A stretch of DNA of 64,000 nt from Trueperaceae bacterium. GTDB taxonomy: Bacteria > Deinococcota > Deinococci > Deinococcales > Trueperaceae. Under the pieces are notes generated by a model that had not been told where the DNA came from, searched no databases, and saw only the letters and a program-made list of their open reading frames with translations. Positions 1,082 through 63,894 of this stretch are shown one piece after another. Within the stretch, counting starts at the first letter, position 1. Each line of letters opens with the position of its first letter. The DNA is taken from positions 1,888,001 through 1,952,000 of the forward strand of contig OZ243927.1 in assembly GCA_965213925.1 (NCBI GenBank), given 5' to 3'. The position numbers were made by a program, and so were the translations under genes.

Positions 1082-1678
1082 TCATTGAGACAGATAGCCG
1101 CAATGTTCAAAGGCGTTTTGAGCGTCGTCTTGAGTAACTGTAAGCACAGCGTCTTCAAAGGCTTGCTTGAGCTCAGGTACGGTGTCGGCGCGTTGCTTTT
1201 TGAGCCAGGCTTTGATCTTAGCGAAGAGATGCTCGATAGGATTGAAGTCAGGGGAGTAGGTGGGCAGGTAAAGCAACTCGCACTCAGCGTCCTCAATCAG
1301 TTCTCTCACCTTATGGTTGTGGTGGATGGTGAAGTTATCCATGATGACGATCTGTCCAGCTTTGAGTGTCGGTACAAGCGAGTGTTCGATGTACGTTAAG
1401 AACGCGGCTCTATCGACACTTCTGTCAAAGACAAGGCAGGCTCGGGGGTTCATGCCCTGCGTACTCACTGCGGCGATGAGACTCACTTTACCTTTGCGCC
1501 TTTTCGGAGCCGTGTCTTCTATCCTTGCGCCACCCACGATGCGGGCGTAAAGTCTCGTCAAGCCCAACCAGCCCCCTGCTTCATCGACGAACACCAAGCG
1601 GCTTGCCGCCTCTTTCAGCGTCGCCTCTAGCCAAGCCTGTCGCGCTTCATCATCACCTTCACTCGGACGTAAAGTCTT
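1082..1678 (-). CDS. IS630 transposase ORF B (DDE catalytic part), entered by frameshift
   Basis: KTLRPSE...LVFVDE, IVIMDN, YLPTYSPDFNPIE motifs. The frame stays open upstream of the ORF-track start back to the A7G run. Confidence 0.88.
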   Translation of the reverse strand, partial: KTLRPSEGDDEARQAWLEATLKEAASRLVFVDEAGGWLGLTRLYARIVGGARIEDTAPKRRKGKVSLIAAVSTQGMNPRACLVFDRSVDRAAFLTYIEHSLVPTLKAGQIVIMDNFTIHHNHKVRELIEDAECELLYLPTYSPDFNPIEHLFAKIKAWLKKQRADTVPELKQAFEDAVLTVTQDDAQNAFEHCGYLSQ

Positions 1679-23539: not shown

Positions 23540-24523
23540 GTGTTCGCTCCGATGACGCCTTCCGTCGTCATCCGCGGCACGGGCGCTTACGTTCCCGAGA
23601 CGCGCCTCACGAACGCTGACTTAGAGCGCATGGTCGACACCTCCGACGAGTGGATCGTAGCGCGCACGGGCATCTCCGAGCGGCGCATCGCCGACCGTGA
23701 CGAGGCGACCTCGCACATGGCGCAGCGCGCGGCGTGCGCGGCGCTGCAAGACGCGGGCGTGAACGCCGCCGACATCGACCTCATCGTGGTCGGCACCTCC
23801 ACGCCGGACCATCACTTCCCCTCGGTCGCCTGCAAGCTCCAGGCGAGCATCGGCTGCACGAACGCGGCCGCGTTCGACGTGAACGCGGCGTGCGCGGGCT
23901 TCATCTCGGCGCTGCAGGTCGCCGAGCAGTTTATCCGGGCGGGCAGCGCCGAGCACGTGCTGGTGGTCGGCGCGGACTGCATGTCGCGCATTTTAGACTA
24001 CACGGACCGCGCCACGAGCATTCTGTTCGGCGACGGGGCGGGCGCGTTCGTCCTCTCCAAAGGCGAAAAGGGCGAGGGCGGCATCCTCAGCTCCGCGACC
24101 TACGCCGACGGCACCTACTACGACAAGCTCTACGTCTGCGGCGGCGGCTGCACCACAGACGGGCAAGAGGACCGCGCCAAAATCCTCATGAACGGCAGAG
24201 CTATTTTCCAACTCGCGGTGCGGGCGATGGTGAGCGCCACCGAAGAGGTGCTCGCCAAAGCGGGCGTGTCGGTCGGCGAGGTCGACTGGGTCGTGCCGCA
24301 TCAAGCGAACCAGCGCATCACGGACGCGGTAGCGAAAGGGCTCTGCGTGTCGCTCGAGAAGGTCATCAGCACCATCAAAGACTTCGGCAACAACTCCGCG
24401 GCGACCGTGCCCTTAGCGATGGACATCGCTATCAAAGACGGACGCATCCAGCGCGGCGATAAGGTGATTTTAACGGCGTTCGGCGGCGGGTTGTCGTGGG
24501 GGTCGGTGCTGCTTAGTTACTAA
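23540..24523 (+). CDS. fabH: 3-oxoacyl-ACP synthase III
   Basis: DTSDEWI, AACAGF, FGDGAGA, PHQAN, GNNSAA, FGGGLSWG. Confidence 0.93.
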   Translation: MFAPMTPSVVIRGTGAYVPETRLTNADLERMVDTSDEWIVARTGISERRIADRDEATSHMAQRAACAALQDAGVNAADIDLIVVGTSTPDHHFPSVACKLQASIGCTNAAAFDVNAACAGFISALQVAEQFIRAGSAEHVLVVGADCMSRILDYTDRATSILFGDGAGAFVLSKGEKGEGGILSSATYADGTYYDKLYVCGGGCTTDGQEDRAKILMNGRAIFQLAVRAMVSATEEVLAKAGVSVGEVDWVVPHQANQRITDAVAKGLCVSLEKVISTIKDFGNNSAATVPLAMDIAIKDGRIQRGDKVILTAFGGGLSWGSVLLSY

Positions 24524-44208: not shown

Positions 44209-46080
44209 ATGTCCCTCTTTACCCCCGGCAACCTCATCGACGAACGCTATGAAATCACCGGCATCCTCGGGCAAGGGGGCACGGGTCAGGTTTACCGTGC
44301 ATATGACCGTCACCTAGACCGCGACGTCGCTCTCAAAGCGCTCCGCCCGCACCTCACCGAAGCCGACGAGGGGCGCTTTAAGCGTGAAATCAAAGCGCTC
44401 GCTAAGCTGAGCCATCCGGGAATCGTCAGTATCTACGACTTGGGGCGCGGGGAGCACGTCTACTTCGCGATGGAACTCGTCGCGGGGGGACCTTTTACGG
44501 ACTTGGGACCGCTCGAGGGCGACTTGGAGCCCTTGCTTACCCTGCTCGACGCCGCCATCTCCGTCTGTGAAGCGCTCGCCTACGTCCACCATCACGGCAT
44601 GGTCCACCGCGACCTCACGCCGCGCAACATCCTCATGACGCTGCAAGGGCAGCCTAAAGTGATGGACTTTGGTTTGGTGCAACTCGCCGAGGCAAGTCGG
44701 CAGCTCACGCGCACGGGCTTCACGCTCGGCACGCCGCAGTACATGGCTCCCGAGCAAGCCGAAGGGGGCGTCATCGGCGCGCACACCGACCTCTACGCGC
44801 TGGGCGCGGTGCTCTACAAAACGGTAACGGGCGCGGCGCTCTTCGAGGCGGAGAGCGACCTCACGCTGCTCTACCAGCACGTCTACAGCGACTTCAAAGC
44901 GCCCACCGAGGTCAACCCGGCGGTGCCGCCGAGCTTGGGCAGGCTGATCAGCAGCCTGCTCGCCAAAGACCCCGCTCTGCGCCCCGCCTCGGGCTACCGC
45001 GTCGCCGAGGCGCTGCGCACGGTTCGCGACGAGGTGGCGCGGGGCGGGGCGCGGCAGCGGCTCGGCGGGCCGGGGCAACGGGGGGTGCTGAGTGGCGGTC
45101 CGCCTACGCCTAACGCGCTGCAACGCGCCTGGCAAGTCAAGCTCGCCGAAGGTCCGCAGTGGCCCGCCGCCCTGACCGCCGCCGAAAACTTTGTGCTGCT
45201 CGGCACGCGGAGCGAAGAGGTCTACGTCCTCCACCCCGCCGACGGCGGCGTGCAGGCGCGTTTTCGCGCCGAGGATGAGGTCAACAGTCCGGTGGTATGT
45301 AGTGACGAAAGGCTCTACTACACGAGTCGCGGCGGGGCGCTCAGCGCGCTGCACTGGCCCAGCGGCGCGCGCGCCTGGGAGGACGAAGAGGCGGGCGCGG
45401 TGGGCATACTTCCCTACGCCGATGACCTCTTTGTGGCGGCGGAGAGAGGTCTCGAGCGGCGCACCAAGGGGGGCGAGGCGAGGTGGCACTACGACCTCGC
45501 CGGGGACGCGCCTGTGGCCGCGCCGACGCTACACCACACGCGGCACCACACGCAGATTTGTGTCGTCACGCACGGAGGCTGGTTGCATAGCGCCGACGCC
45601 GCGACGGGTGAGGGGAAGTTCAAGCTCGAGCTTGGGGCTGTCGCCGCGCAACCCGCTGCTAAGGGCGACATCTTACTCCTCCCCGAACGAAGCGGCGACC
45701 TGCACGCCTTTCACACCGAGCGCTTAGAGGTCCTCTGGACCTACGATATGGAGGGGCAACTCTGGGCGTCACCGCTCCTCTGGGGACCCTACGTCTACGC
45801 GGTCTCGTGGGCCGGGGTGATGCGCTGCTTGTCGCTGCAGACGGGTGACGACGTATGGGCGTATGAGGTCGGCGCGAAGGTCACGGCCGCGCCCGTCCTG
45901 GCGGGCGGCGTGCTCTACATTGCCACCGAAGAGGGTGAGATTATCGCCTTGGATGCGCGCAGCGCTCAGCCTCTCTTTACGGACCGCGTGAGCGCTGCGC
46001 CTATCCAAGCGAGCCCGCTCGTCATCGGGGAGACGCTCGTGGTCGCGGCGCTCGACGGGATGGTGCGGGCGTACCGATAA
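44209..46080 (+). CDS. Hanks-type Ser/Thr kinase with C-terminal PQQ-type beta-propeller (RqkA-like)
   Basis: LGQGGTG, VALK, HRDLTPRN, DFGL, GTPQYMAPE; Trp-containing propeller repeats. Confidence 0.9.
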   Translation: MSLFTPGNLIDERYEITGILGQGGTGQVYRAYDRHLDRDVALKALRPHLTEADEGRFKREIKALAKLSHPGIVSIYDLGRGEHVYFAMELVAGGPFTDLGPLEGDLEPLLTLLDAAISVCEALAYVHHHGMVHRDLTPRNILMTLQGQPKVMDFGLVQLAEASRQLTRTGFTLGTPQYMAPEQAEGGVIGAHTDLYALGAVLYKTVTGAALFEAESDLTLLYQHVYSDFKAPTEVNPAVPPSLGRLISSLLAKDPALRPASGYRVAEALRTVRDEVARGGARQRLGGPGQRGVLSGGPPTPNALQRAWQVKLAEGPQWPAALTAAENFVLLGTRSEEVYVLHPADGGVQARFRAEDEVNSPVVCSDERLYYTSRGGALSALHWPSGARAWEDEEAGAVGILPYADDLFVAAERGLERRTKGGEARWHYDLAGDAPVAAPTLHHTRHHTQICVVTHGGWLHSADAATGEGKFKLELGAVAAQPAAKGDILLLPERSGDLHAFHTERLEVLWTYDMEGQLWASPLLWGPYVYAVSWAGVMRCLSLQTGDDVWAYEVGAKVTAAPVLAGGVLYIATEEGEIIALDARSAQPLFTDRVSAAPIQASPLVIGETLVVAALDGMVRAYR

Positions 46081-51652: not shown

Positions 51653-53203
51653 GTGGGTAACGCCGAACACGAGCAAAGCGGGGGGCAAGAAGTGTCTTCT
51701 GAGCGAACGCCGCCGCAGGCTAGAGCGCAAGTCTGGCTGCGCAACCTGCTCGCGGGGGTCTCGGTGGCGCTAGTATTGGTTCCGCAGTCGTTAGCCTACG
51801 CCGAACTCGCCGGTTTGAGCGCGCTGCACGGTCTCTACGCCGCTGCGCTGCCGCCGATTGCGGCGGCGTTTTTCGCCTCGAGCCCCTACCTACAAACCGG
51901 CCCGACCGCGCTCACGGCGATCCTCGCTTTCGGGGTTCTCTCTTCGCACTTCGCGCCCTCGTCGCCTGAGTACGTCGGCGCGGCGGCGCTTTTGGCGCTG
52001 CTCGTCGGCGCGCTCCGCGTCCTTTTGGGGCTCCTCAAAATGGGCGCGCTGGCGTACTTCATGAGCCAGCCCGTGTTGCGCGGTTTCACCTCGGCGGCGG
52101 CTGTGCTCATCCTCTGTTCGCAGTTGCCCACCGCGTTAGGGGTCGAGGCGGTGGGCGAGGGGATATTCTCGCGCCTCCTCTACACGTTCACGCACCTTAG
52201 CGCGTGGCAGCCTAGCGCCGCTGCGCTAGGCCTCGTCACGCTTCTTTTAGTTCTGGGAGGTCGCCGCCTCTCGCCGCTCTTCCCCGGCGTGCTCGCGGCC
52301 GCCTTGCTGGGTCTCGGCGTGTCCGCTCTGGGCTATTCCGCGTCCGTAGTCGGTGACGTCGGCGCGCCTTCTCTCGGCCTGAACTTGGCGCTTCCTTGGC
52401 ACGCCCTGCCCGAGCTTTTCGTCGGTGCGCTGGTCATCGCCGGGGTGGGCTTCGCGGAGCCGACCGCTATCGCGCGCGCGTACGCTGACGAGGCTGAGCG
52501 TTGGAACCCGAACCGTGAACTGGTCGCTCAAGGGGTGGCGAACATCGCGGCCGGGCTCGTGCAGGGCTTTCCGGTCGGGGGCAGCTTCTCGCGCTCGAGC
52601 TTGGGCAAATTAGCGGGCGCGACGAGCCGCTGGAGCGGTCTCGTCGCCGGGCTCGTAGCGTTAGCGTTTCTCCCCTTCGCCTCCCTTCTAAGCGCCCTGC
52701 CCCGCGCCGTGTTGGGGGCTATCGTCATCGCCGCCGTGGTGAACCTGCTCGAGCTTGGCGAACTCGTCAGGCTCTGGCGCTACGCCCGCTTCCAGGCGCT
52801 CACCGCCTACGCGACCTTCGCGCTGACCTTGCTGCTAGCGCCCCGCATCGACTACGCGGTCTTGGTGGGCGTCGCGCTCGCTGTGGGGCTGCACCTGTGG
52901 CGCGAGACGCAGCTCACCGTCCGCAGCAGCCGCCGCGAGGACACCTTGGTGGTCGAAGTGACCGGCGTGCTGTATTTCGGCTCGGTGCATAGGCTCGAGG
53001 CTGAGCGCCGAGCCCTACCCGACCTCGCCGGTCTCGATGTCGAAGAGGTCGTCGTGGACGGCGCGGGTCTGGGCCGCGTAGACATCAGCGGCGTCATGGC
53101 GCTCCGCACGTGGCAGCGGGAGGTCGAGCGCTCCGGCGTCCCGCTCCGCTTCATCCACTTGCAACCCCACGTGCGCAGGATGATGCGGCGGTTAAAGGAA
53201 TGA
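51653..53203 (+). CDS. SulP family anion permease with STAS domain
   Basis: PQSLAYAELAG, GSFSRS, LYFGS. Confidence 0.92.
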   Translation: MGNAEHEQSGGQEVSSERTPPQARAQVWLRNLLAGVSVALVLVPQSLAYAELAGLSALHGLYAAALPPIAAAFFASSPYLQTGPTALTAILAFGVLSSHFAPSSPEYVGAAALLALLVGALRVLLGLLKMGALAYFMSQPVLRGFTSAAAVLILCSQLPTALGVEAVGEGIFSRLLYTFTHLSAWQPSAAALGLVTLLLVLGGRRLSPLFPGVLAAALLGLGVSALGYSASVVGDVGAPSLGLNLALPWHALPELFVGALVIAGVGFAEPTAIARAYADEAERWNPNRELVAQGVANIAAGLVQGFPVGGSFSRSSLGKLAGATSRWSGLVAGLVALAFLPFASLLSALPRAVLGAIVIAAVVNLLELGELVRLWRYARFQALTAYATFALTLLLAPRIDYAVLVGVALAVGLHLWRETQLTVRSSRREDTLVVEVTGVLYFGSVHRLEAERRALPDLAGLDVEEVVVDGAGLGRVDISGVMALRTWQREVERSGVPLRFIHLQPHVRRMMRRLKE

Positions 53204-53312
53204 GCGTTTTTGTGGTGGGCTTGTATACGTATTGAGCTGACAGGGCGTCAAACCTCTGAACAGTAGTTTGACCCGGTACCTTTACACATCTACGACCTTG
53301 TAAAATAGACCC

Positions 53313-55004
53313 GTGGACGCCCTCATCCTCTTAGCGAGCTATCTCATCGGCTCGTCACCTTTGGGCAGCTTCCTCGTGGTTTGGGCGACGCGGCTCAAGC
53401 CGAGCGAGGTGACGGCGCACAACTTGGGCATCGAGAATGTAATACGCTTCGTCGGCGTGGGCACTGTGCTCGCGTCGTTCGCTGTGGATGTGCTTAAAGG
53501 CTTCGCGGTGCTGGCGCTTTTCGCAGGCAATCCCTGGGCGGCGCTCGGGGTGTATGCAGGTCATCTCTATCCGCTGACGTGGCTCTCTTACGGCGAAGTG
53601 CCGCGCGGCAGAGGGAGCGGCGTTTTCCTTGGCGTGCTTGTGGGGCTGTGGGTCTACACGGGCGTCCCTCTTTGGACCGTGCTCGCGCCGCTTGCGGTTT
53701 ACGCTACTCTCCTCGCTTGGCGTCGCTACGTCACGCTCGCGACGGTGGCGGGGCTCTTGACGCTCACCTTTACCCTCTCTCTACCCGCGACCTCTCAGCC
53801 TGCGCCGCTGACGCTCGTCGGAAGTCTTATCTTCATTTTAGGACTGTGGCGGCACAAGGTCGGACTCGCGCGGATTTTAGATCAGACGGAGCCGAAACTC
53901 GGCAAGCCACCCCCCGTGCGCGGCGTGGACCCGAACACTGTGACCGCCGCTTTTATGATTCACCCGCTGACGATGGACGACGTTTGGCAACCCGGCAGCT
54001 TGCGTTGGCTCGGCTTTTTAGGGCGGCGCGGCGTCGTTCCGCTACCCTTCATACGCCGCGCGCTGCGCCTCTTACGCCCGCAAAAACAGAGCGAGATGCG
54101 CGGGATTCGCCTCGCGGACGGGCGCGAGTTGCGCGTGATGATCCTCAGCGGTCCCTTGTTCCCCGAGCAGATTCGCCGCTACCCCGAGGAGGCGACGCGC
54201 TTGGCGGTCCAGGGGGCGCGGCTCGCGCACGAACTCGGTGCGGAGGCGTTCGGGCTGGGGGCGTTTTGGTCTACGGTAGGGGAGAAGGGGCTCAAAGTGC
54301 AGGAGGCGGTGCCGGAGATTCACATTACCAACGGCGGCGCGTACACGGCGGCGACGGTCAAGGCGGCGGTGCCGGGGCTCCTCAAACGGTTCGAGGCGGA
54401 GGGGGGCGGGCTGGGGCGCTCGAGCGCTGCTGTCGTCGGCGCAAATGGCGTCGTCGCGTTTGGCGTCGCCCGCACGATTGCCCCGGAGATAGCGCGGCTC
54501 ATCCTCATCGGGCGAGATAGAGCGCGTTTAGAGCGCAGCGCTAGAACGTTGCGCCGCAAATACCCCCACACGGAGATTGAGACAAGCACCGACGTCGCCG
54601 CGTGTGAAACGGCTGACCTCATCTTCACCGCCACCTCCGACCCCGCGCCCGTCCTGTTCGCCCACCACGTCAAACCCGGCGCTTGGATTTTCGACCTCGG
54701 GAGGCCCGCCGACGTGGACGAGGGCGTGCGCGAGGTCCCCGGCGTCCACATCATCCCCGGCGGCGTGGTGCGCCCGCCCGGTGAGATGCGCAGCCACCTC
54801 GACTTGCACTTCGGGGATGGTATGGTGCCCGCTTGTATGGCGGAAACGATGATCATGAGCGCGACGCGGGCGTTTCACCGCAAGTCGCTAGGGAGCGCGA
54901 CAAAAGGTGCCGATATCGACTTCTATTTAGAGGAAGGGGCGCGGCTCGGCTTCGAGATCGTGACCCGCGACGCGCGCGTCGCTAGCCCTAAGGAACTCGC
55001 GTGA
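53313..55004 (+). CDS. PlsY-like acyltransferase fused to an NAD(P)-binding acyl-ACP-reductase-like domain
   Basis: N-terminal YLIGSSP, DVLKG, GHLYP. C-terminal FMIHPL, LGAFWS, TNGGAYTA, VVGANG, PACMAET. Confidence 0.75.
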   Translation: MDALILLASYLIGSSPLGSFLVVWATRLKPSEVTAHNLGIENVIRFVGVGTVLASFAVDVLKGFAVLALFAGNPWAALGVYAGHLYPLTWLSYGEVPRGRGSGVFLGVLVGLWVYTGVPLWTVLAPLAVYATLLAWRRYVTLATVAGLLTLTFTLSLPATSQPAPLTLVGSLIFILGLWRHKVGLARILDQTEPKLGKPPPVRGVDPNTVTAAFMIHPLTMDDVWQPGSLRWLGFLGRRGVVPLPFIRRALRLLRPQKQSEMRGIRLADGRELRVMILSGPLFPEQIRRYPEEATRLAVQGARLAHELGAEAFGLGAFWSTVGEKGLKVQEAVPEIHITNGGAYTAATVKAAVPGLLKRFEAEGGGLGRSSAAVVGANGVVAFGVARTIAPEIARLILIGRDRARLERSARTLRRKYPHTEIETSTDVAACETADLIFTATSDPAPVLFAHHVKPGAWIFDLGRPADVDEGVREVPGVHIIPGGVVRPPGEMRSHLDLHFGDGMVPACMAETMIMSATRAFHRKSLGSATKGADIDFYLEEGARLGFEIVTRDARVASPKELA

Positions 55005-55798
55005 GCGTCTCGTTTCACATGCAGGGCGAGTTGGAGAACTTGGAAGCGGAGACCTCTTTACTGTGGGATTTACTGTGGGACGCAGGCTGTCTCGGCGTCG
55101 CGCAAGAGGGTGACGAGGTGGTGGCGTATTTTGCTGAGGTGGTTGCCCTGCCCCTCGAGGGCACCTGGCGAGAGGTTGAAGAGACCGATTATCTGGCGGC
55201 TTATTATGCAGAGCTTGAACCTGTTTATCTCGAGCACCTCATCGTCGCCCCCACCCACTGCGACATCCCCGCAGGTGAAACGCGCCGCGTCCTCTGGCTC
55301 GACCCCGGCATGGCGTTCGGGACGGGGCATCACGCGACGACGTATCTGGCGTTGGCTGCGCTCGAGACCTTCCATCTAGAAAACAAACGAGTTCTGGACG
55401 TGGGCGCAGGTTCGGGTATCTTAACCATCGCTGCCGACCTCTTGGGCGCAGCCGAAGCGGTCGGCATCGACATCGACCCCTTGACCTTGCCCGTGGCGGA
55501 GGAAAACCGAGCGCTGAACGGTTCGAAGGCGACCTTTCGGCTCAGCACGCTGGACGACACGGTCTCCGGAGGCTTCGATATCGTTACGGCGAACCTCTTC
55601 GCCGAACTGCACGTCGAGTTTGCGGCTGCGTATCGCCGCGCTCTGCGTCCAGACGGCTGGCTCTTGGCAACGGGGATTCTGGATGAGCGTTTGGCGCTGG
55701 CAGAGGAGGCGCTGAGCGCTCACCTTACGGTTCACTCGGTTGAATATAAAGAGGAGTGGGCGCTCATCTTGGCGCAGAGATGTGATGACGACATATGA
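55001..55798 (+). CDS. prmA: Ribosomal protein L11 methyltransferase
   Basis: DPGMAFGTGHHATT, LDVGAGSGIL, DIDP. Confidence 0.92.
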   Translation: MSVSFHMQGELENLEAETSLLWDLLWDAGCLGVAQEGDEVVAYFAEVVALPLEGTWREVEETDYLAAYYAELEPVYLEHLIVAPTHCDIPAGETRRVLWLDPGMAFGTGHHATTYLALAALETFHLENKRVLDVGAGSGILTIAADLLGAAEAVGIDIDPLTLPVAEENRALNGSKATFRLSTLDDTVSGGFDIVTANLFAELHVEFAAAYRRALRPDGWLLATGILDERLALAEEALSAHLTVHSVEYKEEWALILAQRCDDDI

Positions 55799-56508
55799 GA
55801 ATCCACCGCGTCTTTCTAAAGGAATTACAAGCAGGGGAGCGGACGCTCTCCGGTGCGGAGGCGCATCATCTCGCGCAAGTTTTGCGGGTTCAACCGGGGA
55901 CGAGGGTGAAAGCGTTCGACGGCTCAGGTTTAGAAGCCGCGGGCGAAGTTCAGGCGGTGGACGAACTGAGCGTCACGCTCCGCTTGGAGTCGCCGGAGCC
56001 GAGCGACGTAGAAGCTACCCTTAAACTCACCCTCGCCGTCCCGCTCCTCAAGGGCGACAAATTCTCCGAAGTCGTGCGGCGCGGCACCGAACTCGGCGCG
56101 GTGCGCTTTATCCCCGTTTTAACCTCTCGCTGTGACGTAAAAGTGCTCTCTGAGAATAAGCTGACGCGCTACCGCCGCGTGGCGAAAGAAGCCGCCAAGC
56201 AGTCGGGGCGGAGCGTCGTGCCAGAGGTGGAGCCCTTGCGCAAGTTGTCCAAGTTGGACTTGGGACCTCTTACGCTCGTCGCGCATCCTCGCTCCTCCGC
56301 GACCTTACAAGAGGTCATGAAGTCGAATGCCGACGCTTACGAAGAGGTCATGCTCGTCACCGGACCCGAAGGCGGCTTGAGCGAACAAGAGGTTGAATCT
56401 CTGACTGAGCAAGGTGCGAAGGGTGTGACCCTGGGCGCACGCATTCTCCGCGCCGAAACTGCGCCCATCGCGCTCACGGCGGCGCTCTTACTGCCGGAGG
56501 CTCTGTAG
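55795..56508 (+). CDS. rsmE: 16S rRNA m3U1498 methyltransferase
   Basis: HHLAQVLR, TELGA, EAAKQSGR, GPEGG, LGARILRAETA. Confidence 0.93.
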   Translation: MRIHRVFLKELQAGERTLSGAEAHHLAQVLRVQPGTRVKAFDGSGLEAAGEVQAVDELSVTLRLESPEPSDVEATLKLTLAVPLLKGDKFSEVVRRGTELGAVRFIPVLTSRCDVKVLSENKLTRYRRVAKEAAKQSGRSVVPEVEPLRKLSKLDLGPLTLVAHPRSSATLQEVMKSNADAYEEVMLVTGPEGGLSEQEVESLTEQGAKGVTLGARILRAETAPIALTAALLLPEAL

Positions 56509-56606
56509 AATCTTGAACATGCTCGAGCGCCAAAAACTTCACAGAACACCCTCTTTCATCGACGCCACACACGCCCTCTAAGCTCAGCCCGTATGATTGA
56601 GGCGAC

Positions 56607-56987
56607 ATGAAACGAATTGCCGTACCGATACTCGCCCTTCTGCTCCTCTCCGCTTGCACGTATACCTACATCCCGCCCGTTCCCGAGGCGCGGACCCGCG
56701 AAGAGGTCTTTACCCTCAGCAGTTCGTCCGGTTTGGTGAGGGAGGGGGAGAGGCTCAGGCTGGACTTCGTGGTGGAGGAGGTGCCCGAAGCGGACTGGCT
56801 CGCGGTGCAGTGGTTCGCCCCGAACAACGACCAGGTCGCTTCGAACTCGGTGTGGATACCCGAATACGACCGGGCCACCGGAACGCTCTTCTCACCCGAG
56901 CGCGTCACCTTGCGCCCCGGCACGTGGCGGGCGGTGCTCTCGTTTCAGGGGCGCATCGTGCGGCAGTTCGCCGCGGTTATCGAGTAA
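56607..56987 (+). CDS. Hypothetical lipoprotein
   Basis: LSAC lipobox; WLAVQWF and PGTWRAVLSF. Confidence 0.7.
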   Translation: MKRIAVPILALLLLSACTYTYIPPVPEARTREEVFTLSSSSGLVREGERLRLDFVVEEVPEADWLAVQWFAPNNDQVASNSVWIPEYDRATGTLFSPERVTLRPGTWRAVLSFQGRIVRQFAAVIE

Positions 56988-57053: not shown

Positions 57054-58295
57054 TTAGCGCCGCGACTGCGACACCCGTACGTTGGTTGTGCGTCCCGGCT
57101 GAATGTCGAACTCGCGGATGTGGGTCGTGAAGCCTGGCGCGGTGACTGTGAGCTGGTGTGTGCCCGTCGGCAGGTCGGAGATGGTAAGCCTCCCGCTGCC
57201 GTTAGGGATGGTGCCGTAGTCCTGCCCGTTGATGAACACCCTCGCGCCGCCGACGTTGGCTTGGACGCGCAACGTGCCCGTGCTCGAGCGAAGCTCCGCG
57301 CTGACCCGCCTGGTGTCGCCGCCGTTCACCGAGAAGCTCACCGCCGTATTCTCGTAACCCGAGTAGCGGAAGCTCGCCCTGTACTCGCCCGCGTTGAGCG
57401 TGACTGGACCCGTGGGCGTCGTGCCGACGAACTGACCGTCCACGTAAACGTCCGCGCCCTCCGGTTGCGAGGTGAAGCTCACGCTACCCGTGCGCCGCAC
57501 CCTCGAGAGCCCCGCGTCGACCTCTCTGGTTTCGCCGCCGCGCAAATCAACGGTTGTCGTGTAGGCGTCGTAACCGTCGCTCTCCACGCGCACCTCGTGC
57601 GTGCCCGAGGTCGTGCCGTAGCGCACCGGCGTGTAGCCGACGAAGCGCCCGTCCACATAGGCTCTCGCGCCTTCGGGCGACGAGGCGATGTCGAGCGTGC
57701 CGTAGCGCTGGGTGGCGGGGCGTCCGCCGACGTAAAAGAGCGCCGTGTCTGTGACCCAGTCGTCTTGAGGAAGCGGTCTCACGACGACCGAGAGTGACTC
57801 GGCGAATTCGCCTTCATCCGCGCTCGAGGTCCTAAAGCTCCCTTCTGACTCGAACTCCAAGAAGTCGGAGGTGTCCAAGGGGTCTAAGCTCGCCACCGCG
57901 AGCACTTTGTCCAAGCCGCGCGGTCCAGCGACCTGGAAGGTATAACGAGCGTCGGTCGGCGGAAAGTACTTCGTCTGGTCCGCCCGGACGAAGTTGTCGC
58001 GTCCATAACTGTCGACCTCGTTGGGAAGAATCTGCTGAATCTCGCCGTCGCTCTTGACGCTAAAGAGGTAGACGTACGCATCTTCACTCGTGCGCACGCC
58101 AATGCGGATGTCCTCGCCGACGTCGTAGCTCGGCACGCTCTGACCCGAGTCGTCTCTGTCAACAAAGACCTCGACCTCAAACGAAGGGTCGGGGTTGACG
58201 ATAATGGACTGCGGCGAGAAGACCGCGCCGTCATCTTGCGCGAAGCCGAAAGCTAAAAGTAAGAGGGGAAGGCTGAAGAAAAATTTCAAGTTCAT
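57054..58295 (-). CDS. Secreted DUF4384 plus three PEGA domain (S-layer-like) protein
   Basis: Signal peptide, SPQSIIVNP, YVYLF..QILPN, repeated PEGA.VYVDG..G.TP. Confidence 0.85.
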   Translation of the reverse strand: MNLKFFFSLPLLLLAFGFAQDDGAVFSPQSIIVNPDPSFEVEVFVDRDDSGQSVPSYDVGEDIRIGVRTSEDAYVYLFSVKSDGEIQQILPNEVDSYGRDNFVRADQTKYFPPTDARYTFQVAGPRGLDKVLAVASLDPLDTSDFLEFESEGSFRTSSADEGEFAESLSVVVRPLPQDDWVTDTALFYVGGRPATQRYGTLDIASSPEGARAYVDGRFVGYTPVRYGTTSGTHEVRVESDGYDAYTTTVDLRGGETREVDAGLSRVRRTGSVSFTSQPEGADVYVDGQFVGTTPTGPVTLNAGEYRASFRYSGYENTAVSFSVNGGDTRRVSAELRSSTGTLRVQANVGGARVFINGQDYGTIPNGSGRLTISDLPTGTHQLTVTAPGFTTHIREFDIQPGRTTNVRVSQSRR

Positions 58296-58343
58296 GACCT
58301 GTTCCTTTCTATCAAAGTATCTAGCATAATAAGCACGGAACAC

Positions 58344-59901: not shown

Positions 59902-61308
59902 ATGTTACCTAAACTTGCCTTCTCTTGTCTTCTCCTCCTACTTCTCAGCGCGTGCGGTATTTTCGGCGGCGGGTCTAGCGCCGGCGTCTGCTACCCCGAC
60001 GTTAGCAGCGCGGCGCGGCCGCTCACCGCGTCTTCGGCGCAGGCAGATAGCGCCTATGTGCCGGGGCAACTGCTGGTGCGCTATAAAACCGAGGCAGGAT
60101 TAGCGACGCTCGCGGCGCGTTCACAGGCGGTGCAGCGTGACTACGGCTTGCGGGTGCTCGAGGCGAATGCTCACTACGCCGACCTCGTCGCCTTGCCCGC
60201 AGGACAGAGCGTGGAGGCTGCGCGCGACAGGCTCAGCGCCGACCCCCGCGTCGCCTACGCCGAGCCGAACTACTACCTCTATATGCAAGCCATCCCGAGC
60301 GACGTCCTGATAGACGAACAGTGGAACCTTTTGGGGTTCGGTCTGCCGCAAGCGTGGGACATCGAAACGGGGCAGAGCAACGTGACCCTCGCCGTGTTAG
60401 ATAGCGGCGTCGACCTCTCGCACGAAGATTTGCGCGGCAGGATTGTGCAAGGGTGCGACTTCTATAATCAGGACAACGACCCTAACCCCGGCTCGCCTAA
60501 GTCGGACGCTAGCACAACGCATGGCACGCACGTCGCGGGCATCGCCGTTGCAACGGGCGACAACGGGGCAGGCGTCGCGGGTGTGGCGTATACGGGTGTC
60601 AAACTACTCCCGGTTAAAGTCTTTGACGACCGAGGACTCGACAGTGAGCGCACGGCGACCAGCGCAGTGGCGAAGGCCATTCGCTGGGCGGCAGGGTTGG
60701 GGGTAGACGGCGCGCAGCGCAACCCCAACCCTGCCAGGATCATTAACCTGAGCTTAGGGAGTGACGGTATGAGGGACCCTGATACCGGCGAACCCCTCAA
60801 CATCATTACCATTGACGAAGCGATCCGCGACGCGCGGCGAGTAGGCGTCTTGACCGTCGTCTCAGCGGGTAATGTCAAAAGCGGTGCGGAAGGAGACGGC
60901 ATCTTCGCGCCCGCGAATGCGCCGGACGCGCTCGCGGTAGGCTCGGTCGATTCTGACTATACGCGCTCGTCGTTTTCAGCCTACAGCGATTCGGACCGCA
61001 CGGTTGACCTGATGGCTCCGGGTGGTTTTGGGCCGAGTTACTGTGGTTCAGTTGTTAGTACGTTCGGCTCGGATACGAGCACCGACAACTACGGCTGCCA
61101 AGCGGGAACCTCGATGGCGGCACCCTTCGTCGCGGGTGTGGCGGCGCTTATCTGGAGCCAGAACCCCGACTGGAGCGTGGACGAGGTCGAGCAGCAACTG
61201 CTCGCTTCAACCTTTTTCGACCCTAGCTATATGAACTCGAGTGAATATGGTGCAGGCGTGCTGTGCGCGGACCGGGCGCTCGGCGCGGCGACGCTCTGCG
61301 GGAACTAG
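59902..61308 (+). CDS. S8 subtilisin-like serine protease lipoprotein
   Basis: LSAC lipobox, AVLDSG, HGTHVAG, GTSMAAP. Confidence 0.93.
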   Translation: MLPKLAFSCLLLLLLSACGIFGGGSSAGVCYPDVSSAARPLTASSAQADSAYVPGQLLVRYKTEAGLATLAARSQAVQRDYGLRVLEANAHYADLVALPAGQSVEAARDRLSADPRVAYAEPNYYLYMQAIPSDVLIDEQWNLLGFGLPQAWDIETGQSNVTLAVLDSGVDLSHEDLRGRIVQGCDFYNQDNDPNPGSPKSDASTTHGTHVAGIAVATGDNGAGVAGVAYTGVKLLPVKVFDDRGLDSERTATSAVAKAIRWAAGLGVDGAQRNPNPARIINLSLGSDGMRDPDTGEPLNIITIDEAIRDARRVGVLTVVSAGNVKSGAEGDGIFAPANAPDALAVGSVDSDYTRSSFSAYSDSDRTVDLMAPGGFGPSYCGSVVSTFGSDTSTDNYGCQAGTSMAAPFVAGVAALIWSQNPDWSVDEVEQQLLASTFFDPSYMNSSEYGAGVLCADRALGAATLCGN

Positions 61309-61521: not shown

Positions 61522-63894
61522 ATGAGACGATTCCGCCTTCTACTTCTCCTAGCATTTTCTCTCTCGCTCGGGCTTGCGGCTTGTTCTGTGCAGACCCAGC
61601 CGCCCCCTACGACGCCCGAACCTAACCCGCCCGCCGACCCAGCCTTGCAGGGCAGCTTCACCCTCTCGACCGACAGCGCGGGCAATAGCTTGGACCCCGG
61701 CGGCGAGGTTAAGGGCGTGCCGATCCGCGTAAACCGCGCCAGCACGTTTGAAGGCGCGGTCACTTTTGAGCTTTTCGGCGCGCCTGAAGGCGTCGCGGGA
61801 CGCTTCGACCCGCCGAGCACTACGGGCGACCGGAGCGAGTTGACGCTTCAAGTGAGCGAGACGACCCCCTCGGGCGAGTACGATTTGACCGTAAGAGGGA
61901 AGAGCGGCGGGACGAGTAATACCGTGCAGATTCCGCTCTTCGTGACCGAAGCGGCGAGCAACAGTCAACCCGGATTTAGCGTGGCGCTGTCGCCCTCGAG
62001 TCTCAACCTCTCACCTGGCGAGAGCGAGAACGTGCGCGTCACCTTCAACCGGAGTGGTGGTGTGGACGGGGCAATTGGACTTAGCGTCTCGGGCGAACCG
62101 GCGGGCGTCACCGTCCTTATCGACACCTCCTCGCAGCCGACCTTGCGCGTCACGGCGGACGAGCGCGCGGTTCCCGGCAACTACGCACTCACGGTGCGCG
62201 GCGCGTCGGGCGGGCTGAGCAGCAGCACGCAGCTTGGGCTGAGCATTGCGGGCGAAGGCGGTAGCGACGCGTCGGGTAGCGCCCGCGTGCGGGGCAGCGT
62301 GCGAACTGCAAACGCCGATATCTCGGTGCAAGCCGCGTCGCAAGCCGCCGCTTCAGAACGTACGTCCCTCGGCATGCTCTCCGCAGCGGAAGGACGAGCA
62401 GCGGCGAAGCCCGCTTTCGTACCGGGGCAGGTGCTCGTGCAGTACCGAACGGGCGAACTGAGTGCGCAGTCAGCACAGAAGGCAGCGCAGAGGGCAATGC
62501 AGATGAAAGTAGCCGTGCGCCAGCGCTTCGGCTTAGACCTCTTAGAGGCGGGCGCTGACCAGCAGCCCGACCTCGTAACCATTCCCAGAGATAAAGAGGT
62601 CGAAGACGTCGCCGCAGAGCTGAGGCGCGACCCCGACGTCCTCCACGCCGAGCCGAACTACTACCTCTACCCGGCAGCGCTACCCAATGACCCCAGCGTG
62701 GGCAAACAGTGGGCGCTCTCAGCCGCAGGGTTGCCCGTCGCTTGGCAGAGGGAAACGGGCGACGAGGTCGTCATCGCGGTTTTAGACTCCGGCTTCGACC
62801 TCTCGCACGAAGACTTGGCGAGCCGCTTTGTGCCCGGTTACGATTTCTGCGCCTTGACGAGCGGCGACTGCGCGAACGCGCCGAGCGACCCAGACCCCAG
62901 CTACGGCGACGCGGCCAACAGCCACGGCACGCTCGTCGCGGGCGTCGCGGGCGCAGCCGGAGATAACGGGCGCGGCGTCGCGGGCGTCGCTTACGGCGGC
63001 GTCAAGCTCCTGCCCGTCAAGCTCTTCAACGACGTAGGCACGGGCGCGACCTCGCAGAGTTTTATCCAAGGGATTCGCTGGGCGGTGGGGCTCGAGGTGG
63101 GCGGCGTCCCTGTCAACCGCAACCCCGCACGGGTCGTCAACATCAGCTTGGGCGGAGACTTTAGCAGCAGCATCGTGCAGAGCGCCATCGACGAGGCGAG
63201 AGGTCGGGGCGCGGTCGTCGTCGCCGCGACGGGCAATAGCGGACGAGGAGGCAGCTCGGGCGGCGTCTTATCGCCCGCGGCTGCAAACGGCGTCATCGGC
63301 GTCGGGTCCATCAACCGCGACTTCGAGCGCTCATGCTTTTCGAACTACGGCGTCGGCGAGCGCAACGGGCCGGGCGGCGTGGACCTCGTTGCGCCGGGCG
63401 GCGAAGCGGCGGCGGCGAGCTGCAACAGGGGCAGCTACGGACTTCTCAGCACCGCGCCGGGCAGCCGCTACGAGACCGCCATCGGCACCTCGTTCGCCAC
63501 GCCGATGGTCGCGGGCGCGGCGGCGCTCATCCTCAGCCGCGAGCCCGGCTTAAGCGCCATACAGGTCGAGGAGAGGCTCTTATCAGGTGCCTACCTTGAC
63601 GACGCGATGAGCCGAGACGAGTATGGGCGCGGCGTGCTGCGCGCCGAGCGGTCGCTCGGAATGGCTGGACCCGGCGACCAGGTGAGCGTCACAGCGAGCG
63701 GCGAAGGCGTGTCCGACAGTGACCTCGCGACCGTCACGCTCGACCTCTACGGCGGCTCGTCCGCCTACAGCTTAGAGGACCTGGCTGCGGGGCGTTACCG
63801 CCTAGAGGCGGCAGCGGACGGTCTGAGCGCCCAGACCACCCTCAGCCTGCGCGACGGCGAGCGGCGTAGCGGCGTCACGCTCGAGCTGCGCTAG
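61522..63894 (+). CDS. S8 subtilisin-like serine protease lipoprotein with N-terminal Ig-like repeats
   Basis: LAAC lipobox, two beta-rich repeats, AVLDSG, HGTLVAG, GTSFATP. Confidence 0.92.
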   Translation: MRRFRLLLLLAFSLSLGLAACSVQTQPPPTTPEPNPPADPALQGSFTLSTDSAGNSLDPGGEVKGVPIRVNRASTFEGAVTFELFGAPEGVAGRFDPPSTTGDRSELTLQVSETTPSGEYDLTVRGKSGGTSNTVQIPLFVTEAASNSQPGFSVALSPSSLNLSPGESENVRVTFNRSGGVDGAIGLSVSGEPAGVTVLIDTSSQPTLRVTADERAVPGNYALTVRGASGGLSSSTQLGLSIAGEGGSDASGSARVRGSVRTANADISVQAASQAAASERTSLGMLSAAEGRAAAKPAFVPGQVLVQYRTGELSAQSAQKAAQRAMQMKVAVRQRFGLDLLEAGADQQPDLVTIPRDKEVEDVAAELRRDPDVLHAEPNYYLYPAALPNDPSVGKQWALSAAGLPVAWQRETGDEVVIAVLDSGFDLSHEDLASRFVPGYDFCALTSGDCANAPSDPDPSYGDAANSHGTLVAGVAGAAGDNGRGVAGVAYGGVKLLPVKLFNDVGTGATSQSFIQGIRWAVGLEVGGVPVNRNPARVVNISLGGDFSSSIVQSAIDEARGRGAVVVAATGNSGRGGSSGGVLSPAAANGVIGVGSINRDFERSCFSNYGVGERNGPGGVDLVAPGGEAAAASCNRGSYGLLSTAPGSRYETAIGTSFATPMVAGAAALILSREPGLSAIQVEERLLSGAYLDDAMSRDEYGRGVLRAERSLGMAGPGDQVSVTASGEGVSDSDLATVTLDLYGGSSAYSLEDLAAGRYRLEAAADGLSAQTTLSLRDGERRSGVTLELR

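Follow-up and report, generated by a model that had tools for sequence, protein, structure and literature searches.

A 64,000-nucleotide stretch of DNA from a Trueperaceae bacterium (GenBank assembly GCA_965213925.1, contig OZ243927.1, positions 1,888,001 to 1,952,000 of the forward strand; hereafter the window) encodes a protein in which a membrane domain with the fold of the acyltransferase PlsY is fused to a cytoplasmic domain with the fold of cyanobacterial acyl-ACP reductase (AAR; ACP, acyl carrier protein). The product is best explained as a bifunctional inner-membrane enzyme that has been vertically inherited across Deinococcota. We tentatively favour the reading that it joins an NADPH-dependent fatty-acyl reductase to a PlsY that has been repurposed, and that it may feed the synthesis of the alkylamine phosphoglycolipid of this lineage or, less likely, of its 1,2-diols. 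The open reading frame (ORF) and its two domains are as follows.

53313..55004, plus strand: PlsY-like/AAR-like fusion ORF, GTG start, TGA stop, 563 aa
53313..53912, plus strand: PlsY-fold membrane domain, aa 1-200, recognised by PF02660 and Foldseek
53925..54980, plus strand: cytoplasmic AAR-like (acyl-ACP-reductase-fold) domain, aa ~205-556

The start codon is sound, since a 90%-identical homologue (P0006) begins with MDALIL at the same residue. All motifs quoted for the protein in an initial annotation, made from the sequence alone, were present in the translation of 53313..55004 (AHNLGIENVIR, RGRG, RHKVG, FMIHPL, LGAFWS, TNGGAYTA, VVGANG and PACMAE).

The C-terminal domain is AAR-like and retains the catalytic cysteine

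A model of the whole protein was built with AlphaFold2 from 125 aligned family members (mean pLDDT 94.1, pTM 0.91, with the placement of the domains also confident) and compared with the PDB using Foldseek; template modelling (TM) scores are reported normalised by target length. For the C-terminal domain, cyanobacterial AAR ranked first (6jzu/6jzz; E 8.1e-19 over ~360 columns, TM 0.77 for 6jzu_A to 0.79 for 6jzz), followed by the TAD domains of the carmabin pathway (E about 2e-15, TM 0.61-0.72). Glutamyl-tRNA reductase (GluTR) reached a TM of only 0.27-0.28, and shikimate dehydrogenase was absent from the PDB matches listed by Foldseek. The family profile gave the same first rank when compared with PDB sequences, with E-values of 1.2e-29 for AAR, 4.1e-28 for the PigE N-terminal domain, 2.7e-10 for GluTR, 2.6e-10 for TAD and 3.6e-3 for shikimate dehydrogenase. 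The initial annotation had assigned residues ~205-563 to an AAR-like domain and had named a closer relationship to shikimate or glutamyl-tRNA reductases as the alternative; AAR came first by structure and by profile, and both alternatives were far weaker. The Pfam match to Shikimate_DH (E 1.9e-7) covered the Rossmann part only (aa 367-480). NF053554 was the best NCBIfam match of the domain (model positions 53-314, E 3.6e-24), and TIGR04058, the AAR equivalog model, was absent among the 25 NCBIfam families listed for the window protein. Overall, these comparisons show that the C-terminal domain is an AAR-like member of the thioester-reductase superfamily and not an AAR equivalog.

Three elements of the putative active site were located by alignment.

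54438..54458, plus strand: dinucleotide-binding loop G376-A-N-G379-V-V-A382, aligned with AAR 162-GATGDIG-168
54513..54527, plus strand: R401 and R405, aligned with AAR R189 and R193 of the NADPH 2'-phosphate pocket
54834..54836, plus strand: Cys508 (TGT), counterpart of the catalytic Cys294 of AAR and of Cys296 of PigE

In the alignment of the profile to AAR in the PDB, along which residue equivalences were counted by hand, the motifs of the domain paralleled LGGF, TTGNTHTA, VVGATG and ACFAE of AAR just as had been proposed. Cys508 was invariant in the family alignments and, in a sample of 54 homologues that spanned all architectures, was present in 53; Couturier et al. (PMC8341465) equated PigE Cys296 with AAR Cys294. 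All 54 homologues had the Rossmann glycines G376 and G379 as well as His217 and Asp461, and a basic residue occupied position 401 in 45 of them and position 405 in 52. An excerpt of the structural work on AAR (PMC7089970) describes R189, R193 and R314 as surrounding the ribose phosphate of NADPH. As judged by alignment, the predicted catalytic cysteine, the dinucleotide loop and two of these three NADPH-phosphate arginines are intact in the C-terminal domain.

The domain thus shares with AAR of Synechococcus elongatus (6JZQ, 6JZU, 6JZY, 6JZZ) a three-domain fold along with these residues, and by analogy its chemistry would be expected to run from acyl-thioester through acyl-S-Cys to aldehyde. 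The two differ in sequence, being 20-21% identical in the Foldseek alignment, and Y247 of AAR corresponds to R464 in the window protein (Val in Thermaceae). R464 was considered as a phosphate site specific to PlsY fusions and was rejected, as Arg is common at this position in standalone and START-fused homologues and the residue is Val in Thermaceae. AAR is a soluble enzyme that docks on aldehyde-deformylating oxygenase (ADO), whereas the window domain is covalently tethered to a membrane domain; no ADO-type (ferritin-like) gene was found among the 42 window ORFs scanned.

The rank of the TAD domains, the second-best structural relatives, bears on a reading that we consider very improbable, namely that the domain is no reductase at all. 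Acyl-S-Cys508 would then be resolved by a nitrogen or oxygen nucleophile, in a TAD-like amidation or acyl transfer, and the nucleotide would be structural or redox-neutral. The TAD of CarI (carmabin; 9E4S-9E56) is described, in excerpts of the work on it, as having an AAR-derived fold with an invariant Cys beside a bound nicotinamide cofactor, and its authors suggest that ammonia attacks the Cys thioester while NAD is bound close by. However, the family profile is closer to AAR and PigE than to TAD, and arginines of the NADPH type are kept, whereas TAD is specific for NAD(H) according to the same excerpts. TAD also differs in its position at the terminus of a nonribosomal peptide synthetase and in its macrodomain-type N-subdomain.

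The N-terminal domain is a PlsY fold with a remodelled active site

The N-terminal domain matched PlsY by Pfam (PF02660, aa 9-188, E 6e-22), by comparison of the family profile with PlsY in the PDB (E 1.3e-39) and by Foldseek (5xj5-5xj8, E about 1e-7, TM 0.76-0.79), and a protein atlas search with this domain returned generic PlsY clusters only, at 0.88. Its score against the curated PlsY model TIGR00023 was 56.8 bits, below the cutoff of 137.2; orthologues from Meiothermus, Thermus and Deinococcus (58-71 bits) were also below this cutoff, and two relatives of the Armatimonadota type scored 62 and 78 bits. The motifs concerned are listed here.

53412..53447, plus strand: remodelled PlsY motif 1, aa 34-45, TAHNLGIENVIR (Aquifex PlsY: GSGNVGATNVTR)
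53562..53612, plus strand: H84 (= PlsY His92) through R98-G-R100-G101 (G-G-K104-G in PlsY)
53853..53891, plus strand: C-terminal PlsY motif WRHKVGLARILDQTE, in which H181 = His177 and R187 and E193 are conserved

Residues were matched to Aquifex aeolicus PlsY (5XJ5-5XJ9) by a phmmer alignment in which residue numbers are identical through motif 1. The roles given below are those in the Aquifex enzyme, which lacks the about 360 extra cytoplasmic residues of the window protein; G3P is glycerol-3-phosphate.

Ser35 (G3P phosphate clamp): Ala35
Thr41 (hydroxyl, and also the A40/T41 amides; acyl-phosphate carbonyl): Glu41, codon 53433-53435
Arg45 (G3P phosphate clamp): Arg45; R, H, Y, E, K or D across the family
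His92 (with loop-3 amides; acyl-phosphate phosphate hole): His84
Lys104 (G3P phosphate clamp): Arg100
His177 (G3P 2-OH): His181, retained
Asn180 (G3P phosphate clamp): Gly184

Further changes in the window protein were G36H and G102R, while N37, G39, N42, the D/K motif (D59/K62) and R183 (= R187) were retained. Altered PlsY motifs had been recognised in the initial annotation, and the alignment both bears this out and sharpens it, in that the counterparts of the changed positions in Aquifex PlsY are residues that bind either G3P or the carbonyl of acyl-phosphate.

We then compared 25 family members residue by residue, 12 from the Deinococcota clade (3 of these Trueperaceae) and 13 others. His92, the D/K motif, Gly39 and the loop-3 glycine G101 were kept in all 25. 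Ser35 was lost in every one of the 12 Deinococcota-clade rows, and Glu stood at the Thr41 position in all 12 of these and in none of the 13 others. The position of His177 held His in the three Trueperaceae and F, Y or S in the other nine members of the clade, and Asn180 was kept in 9 of the 12, with G or S in Trueperaceae. Across an alignment of 29 Trueperaceae sequences the variant residues of the site were invariant, which indicates selection rather than decay. As reported in excerpts of a study of Aquifex PlsY (PMC5700162), mutation of the clamp residues to alanine removed >92% of activity, T41A had a 'severe consequence', K104R left 25% of activity, His177 was irreplaceable, and the residues that position G3P were termed highly invariable. 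These results show that the N-terminal domain has the seven-helix fold of PlsY with the phosphate-hole histidine (H84) and D59/K62 retained; by alignment, it has lost residues that canonical PlsY needs to position G3P and the acyl carbonyl (S35A, T41E, K104R and N180G).

This pattern of loss and retention is what an acyl-phosphate reductase might show, a variant of our favoured reading that differs from it in substrate and in the direction of hand-over and that we regard as improbable. The PlsY-derived domain would bind acyl-phosphate made by PlsX rather than G3P, Cys508 would attack the acyl-phosphate (compare aspartate-semialdehyde dehydrogenase), and NADPH would release the fatty aldehyde. 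The elements retained in all 25 rows (H84, G101 and D59/K62) are those that hold the phosphate and chain of acyl-phosphate, those lost bind G3P, and the Cys/NADPH machinery is intact. However, Thr41, the sole other side chain of PlsY that binds acyl-phosphate, is now Glu, and the PlsY active site lies in the cytoplasmic half of the membrane whereas Cys294 of AAR is at the centre of a soluble molecule. To our knowledge, no member of the AAR family uses acyl-phosphate, which also counts against this variant.

Distribution and phylogeny of the fusion

Of the candidates scored in a search with the window protein, 750 were relatives at E ≤ 1e-3. All of the best 120 were full-length fusions (59-92% identity), and those with names came from Truepera, Trueperaceae or Deinococcota. 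With each GTDB species represented by one genome, a scan yielded 318 pattern matches, 283 of which encode a relative; the 80 loci that were analysed further were mostly from metagenome-assembled genomes (MAGs) of Trueperaceae, with a few labelled Deinococcaceae, Deinococcales or Deinococci and one from Meiothermus rufus DSM 22234 (49% identity). Among the best 120 matches to the Meiothermus protein were four Meiothermus species, at least eight Thermus species, Oceanithermus, Deinococcus maricopensis and one Armatimonadota MAG, and a profile of divergent members retrieved more than 20 named Deinococcus species together with six more proteins from Armatimonadota/Armatimonadetes MAGs. The NCBI name of these proteins is almost always 'glycerol-3-phosphate acyltransferase', as it is in UniRef and JGI; one truncated Meiothermus luteus entry is named 'long-chain acyl-ACP reductase'.

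A maximum-likelihood tree was computed for 40 of about 500 proteins (the named ones plus representatives), with SH-aLRT support and a midpoint root used for drawing only. Trueperaceae (100), Deinococcus (99) and Thermaceae (95) each formed a group, and the joint Deinococcota clade (95) also took in P0123 and one of the seven Armatimonadota sequences. Outside this clade lay the remaining six as well as the near-canonical P0124, and fusions with a canonical PlsY site formed the most distant group. The pattern is as expected from vertical inheritance within Deinococcota.

Two further observations were made on individual branches. The Armatimonadota-labelled protein within the clade, P0390 from a MAG, sits beside Thermaceae (99) and apart from the other six Armatimonadota copies, which could reflect gene transfer or a mis-binned contig. 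In a subgroup of Trueperaceae/Deinococcales MAG loci the query spans ~1,820-1,840 nt compared with ~1,650 nt elsewhere, implying an insertion of ~50-60 residues in the protein of that subgroup (the loci include L021, L024, L026, L028, L033, L034, L036, L037, L047, L048 and L050; two are labelled Truepera radiovictrix).

Proposed mechanism and link to lineage-specific lipids

In the mechanism that we propose, the C-terminal domain would load a fatty acyl group from acyl-ACP (or from acyl-CoA or acyl-phosphate) onto Cys508, NADPH would reduce the bound acyl group to the fatty aldehyde, and the aldehyde would pass through an acyl tunnel to reach the lipid groove of the tethered PlsY-derived domain. 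The latter, having been repurposed, would carry out a non-G3P reaction or a hand-over at the membrane surface, in place of the docked partner of AAR, and the enzyme would feed a single-chain, non-glycerol lipid building block of the lineage. AAR itself is described in excerpts of PMC7089970 as loading Cys294 with an acyl group taken from acyl-ACP or acyl-CoA, reducing this group with NADPH and releasing the aldehyde through a hydrophobic tunnel towards its docked partner. AAR-like domains feed a transaminase to make an amine in PigE (PMC8341465) and, as described in part of PMC9594044, in TamH. PigE (prodigiosin MAP pathway; 4PPM; NF053554) resembles the window protein in that it too joins an AAR-like domain to the enzyme that acts next in a lipid-tail pathway, and differs in that the partner is a C-terminal class-III aminotransferase rather than an N-terminal PlsY-fold membrane domain; Pfam found no aminotransferase domain in the window fusion protein. 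For PlsY, natural C-terminal fusions to an acyl carrier are interpreted as substrate channelling in passages of PMC5700162. The natural PlsY-DegV (FakB-like) fusions of that paper (Li et al. 2017) are set apart from the window protein by their description there, the partner being a fatty-acid-binding protein and not a Cys/NAD(P)H enzyme.

The most likely product of such an enzyme would be the alkylamine of the N-glyceroyl-alkylamine phosphoglycolipid, made from fatty acyl via aldehyde to amine; this lipid was chosen because its occurrence best matches the distribution of the gene. Excerpts of PMC3035268 describe it as the major phospholipid in both Thermus and Meiothermus, note its relationship to that of D. 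radiodurans and term it a chemical marker of the Deinococcus-Thermus lineage. In T. thermophilus HB8 the alkyl group of the phosphoglycolipid is iso-C17 and the species has pentadecanoyl and heptadecanoyl fatty acids of the iso type, as given in an excerpt of PMC3398001, where work on the pathway was still called 'underway' in 2012. The initial annotation had suggested matching the gene against producers of alkylamines and diols. The Deinococcota-wide distribution, which includes many Deinococcus species, fitted the alkylamine phosphoglycolipid better than the diols, and the family also extends to Armatimonadota. Our literature searches, with most subscription journals outside their scope, found no gene assigned to the alkylamine or to the long-chain diols and nothing usable on plsY or plsX in Thermus or Deinococcus.

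A more specific version of this proposal, which we consider improbable though appealing as chemistry, is that the PlsY-derived domain is the N-glyceroyl-alkylamine synthase itself and performs PlsY chemistry with the roles swapped, the aldehyde from which the amine derives being provided by the fused AAR-like domain. A fatty amine in the groove would be the nucleophile, its ammonium head bound and deprotonated by the clade-invariant Glu41, and the polar pocket would hold the donor, a glyceroyl-phosphate such as 1,3-bisphosphoglycerate. A near-isostere of lysophosphatidic acid would result, and one polypeptide would bracket the phosphoglycolipid pathway of Deinococcota.

Synthesis of long-chain 1,2-diols as the dedicated function of the protein seems to us quite unlikely. 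Here either one carbon would be added to the aldehyde or a hydroxyacyl substrate would undergo reduction, with the PlsY-like domain acting on a diol backbone that replaces 1-acyl-glycerol. The diols are one carbon longer than the fatty acids, and the extra carbon would need chemistry that neither domain offers. Excerpts of PMC3072082 and PMC3035268 record diols in Truepera, Thermus and Meiothermus, and the latter describes them as substituting for 1-acyl-sn-glycerol, the product class of PlsY. The same excerpts, however, present the diols as minor and their occurrence in Deinococcus as unknown, yet the gene is found in many Deinococcus species.

Related fusions, including fusions to canonical PlsY

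A search with the C-terminal domain alone retrieved 1,871 cluster representatives at a threshold of E ≤ 1e-3, of which 954 reached E ≤ 1e-10. The architectures of the 64 long members among the top 150 were typed by Pfam, and the extra domains were distributed as follows.

PlsY: 20 of 64 (9 of the divergent type, 11 with strong PlsY scores)
START/polyketide-cyclase (lipid-binding): 8 of 64
PilZ: 5 of 64, 3 of these also with START
PlsC-type acyltransferase: 2 of 64
Class-III aminotransferase: 2 of 64 (P0176 and P0236), one also with AMP-binding
Remainder: a weak NAD(P)-binding-domain match at most, many of about 700 aa

The AAR-like fold is thus repeatedly wired to lipid-handling modules, and its fusion to PlsY exists in canonical and remodelled forms. 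The fusions to START, PlsC-type or aminotransferase partners are P0144, P0150, P0151, P0164, P0170, P0178, P0184, P0260, P0177, P0241, P0176 and P0236; one of the START type also carries a helix-turn-helix (HTH). In proteins of ~700 aa such as P0149 and P0155, the AAR-like domain is accompanied by an unrecognised N-terminal region of about 300 aa.

All 11 fusions with a canonical site (P0145, P0159, P0166, P0175, P0201, P0204, P0215, P0216, P0228, P0231 and P0251) keep GSGNxGxTN, GGK and HxxN, and the four that were tested against TIGR00023 all passed, at 140-160 bits. They resemble the window protein in domain order, in length (566-604 aa) and in conservation of the Cys and the Rossmann glycines, and differ in their canonical PlsY site and in being 23-28% identical to it. 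A protein atlas search with one of them (P0175) returned the Deinococcota fusion cluster only.

Genomic context and the housekeeping alternative

The fusion gene is preceded by a SulP permease gene (51653-53203) and followed by two genes on its own strand.

53204..53312, strandless: intergenic spacer of 109 nt, 5' of the fusion gene
55001..55798, plus strand: prmA, ribosomal protein L11 methyltransferase (Pfam PF06325, E 3e-56)
55795..56508, plus strand: rsmE-type RNA methyltransferase (Pfam PF04452), third gene of the unit

The TGA stop of the fusion gene overlaps the GTG start of prmA (GTGA), and the prmA stop overlaps the ATG of the rsmE-type gene (ATGA), so the three genes look translationally coupled. 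A scan of 52900-56800 found neither a consensus sigma-70 promoter nor an intrinsic terminator, and no canonical plsY, plsX or plsC was found among the 42 window ORFs scanned.

Gene neighbourhoods were compared in 81 records (80 loci plus the window), many of them truncated contigs; the fusion ORF was located by motif in 65, and the 16 misses were excluded. The gene that came next on the same strand was prmA in 36 of the 65 loci; rsmE lay downstream in 30, an unannotated ORF of 131 aa likewise in 36, and a divergent dnaB upstream in 38. Other recurring neighbours were pilM/N/O, ftsH and secDF. A different arrangement was seen in Meiothermus rufus DSM 22234 (L080:9977-13712, contig NZ_AUHY01000036.1), where triosephosphate isomerase lies 8 bp downstream of the orthologue, followed by a class I/II aminotransferase, branched-chain keto-acid dehydrogenase E1 alpha and beta, and an ALDH-MaoC fusion. 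These neighbours hint at a possible link to triose phosphates or transamination, as a lead from this single locus.

This context bears on the main rival explanation, which we judge unlikely while taking it seriously, that the protein is the housekeeping acyl-phosphate:G3P acyltransferase of the lineage and the AAR-like domain its built-in acyl feeder. Cys508 would take an acyl group from acyl-ACP or acyl-CoA and pass it to the PlsY-like site, either directly or after phosphorolysis, which would give acyl-phosphate in place of, or beside, PlsX. The translationally coupled housekeeping operon, the occurrence of one copy per locus with vertical inheritance, and the name shared by NCBI, UniRef and JGI all fit this explanation, as does the passing of TIGR00023 by the related canonical fusions. 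No second plsY turned up either, tblastn of canonical and divergent PlsY domains having matched the fusion gene only; that search covered the 1.3 Mb of the 81 records and says nothing genome-wide. Excerpts of PMC5700162 interpret the natural PlsY-DegV fusions as acyl-phosphate channelling, and excerpts of PMC7089970 report that the NADPH cleft of AAR also takes CoA through the same arginines, so that a conserved cleft need not mean redox chemistry. Against the housekeeping role stand the replacement of residues that position G3P throughout much or all of the Deinococcota clade (S35 in 12 of 12, T41 to Glu in 12 of 12, H177 in 9 of 12) and a PlsY score of less than half the curated cutoff. Moreover, we know of no precedent for thioester phosphorolysis in an AAR fold.

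Several observations also weigh against a reductase that feeds the alkylamine lipid. Within the C-terminal domain, the third NADPH-phosphate arginine of AAR (R314) corresponds to the variable S528 and is not conserved, and relatives score 46-69 bits against TIGR04058, compared with its cutoff of 449.7. Nor do fold and Cys guarantee reductase activity, given that the AAR-fold TAD may be non-reductive, and purified PigE did not consume NAD(P)H (PMC8341465). The existence of a sister group with canonical PlsY means that the architecture alone requires no non-G3P acceptor, and if genomes with the fusion do lack a canonical PlsY, the fusion must be their G3P acyltransferase. The family is present in Armatimonadota MAGs, and we know of no alkylamine lipid in that phylum. 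An excerpt of PMC3072082 states that the polar lipids of Truepera were not compared with those of Deinococcus or Thermus, and the alkylamine lipid is therefore undocumented for the family to which the window belongs. No recurring lipid, aminotransferase or sugar gene was found beside the fusion gene in the 65 loci, and the literature searches, within the scope given above, found no paper on the PlsY/AAR fusion or its enzymology.

Other features of the window

Several features elsewhere in the window were recorded. A gene for a protein with three PEGA repeats, DUF4384 and a carboxypeptidase-regulatory-like domain (57054-58343, minus strand) lies just downstream of the fusion operon on the opposite strand. 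Beyond it are two adjacent subtilisin-family proteases (59902-61308 and 61522-63894, both plus strand), each with a fervidolysin-type N-terminal prodomain. A Ser/Thr protein kinase is fused to a PQQ/BamB-like beta-propeller at 44209-46080 (plus strand). A lone FabH (KAS III) gene at 23540-24523 (plus strand) stands between aldo-keto reductase and AzlC genes, without its usual plsX/fabD/fabG neighbours. An ORF of 171 aa at 1082-1597 (minus strand) matches the whole DDE_3 transposase-endonuclease domain and lies within the 2-kb block of lowest GC in the window (GC 0.547); it is possibly a mobile-element remnant.

Significance

Both domain families were known, and what is new is their fusion with a remodelled PlsY site. 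Beyond PigE and TamH, we found no functional studies of fusions between AAR-like domains and lipid modules. PlsY has been thought highly invariable in its G3P pocket, and the sequences described here form a large natural branch in which this pocket is remodelled. If the fusion is the G3P acyltransferase of its lineage, it would deliver acyl groups to the opening step of phospholipid synthesis in a novel way. As the fusion stands, it provides a concrete, phylum-wide gene candidate for the marker lipid of Deinococcus-Thermus.

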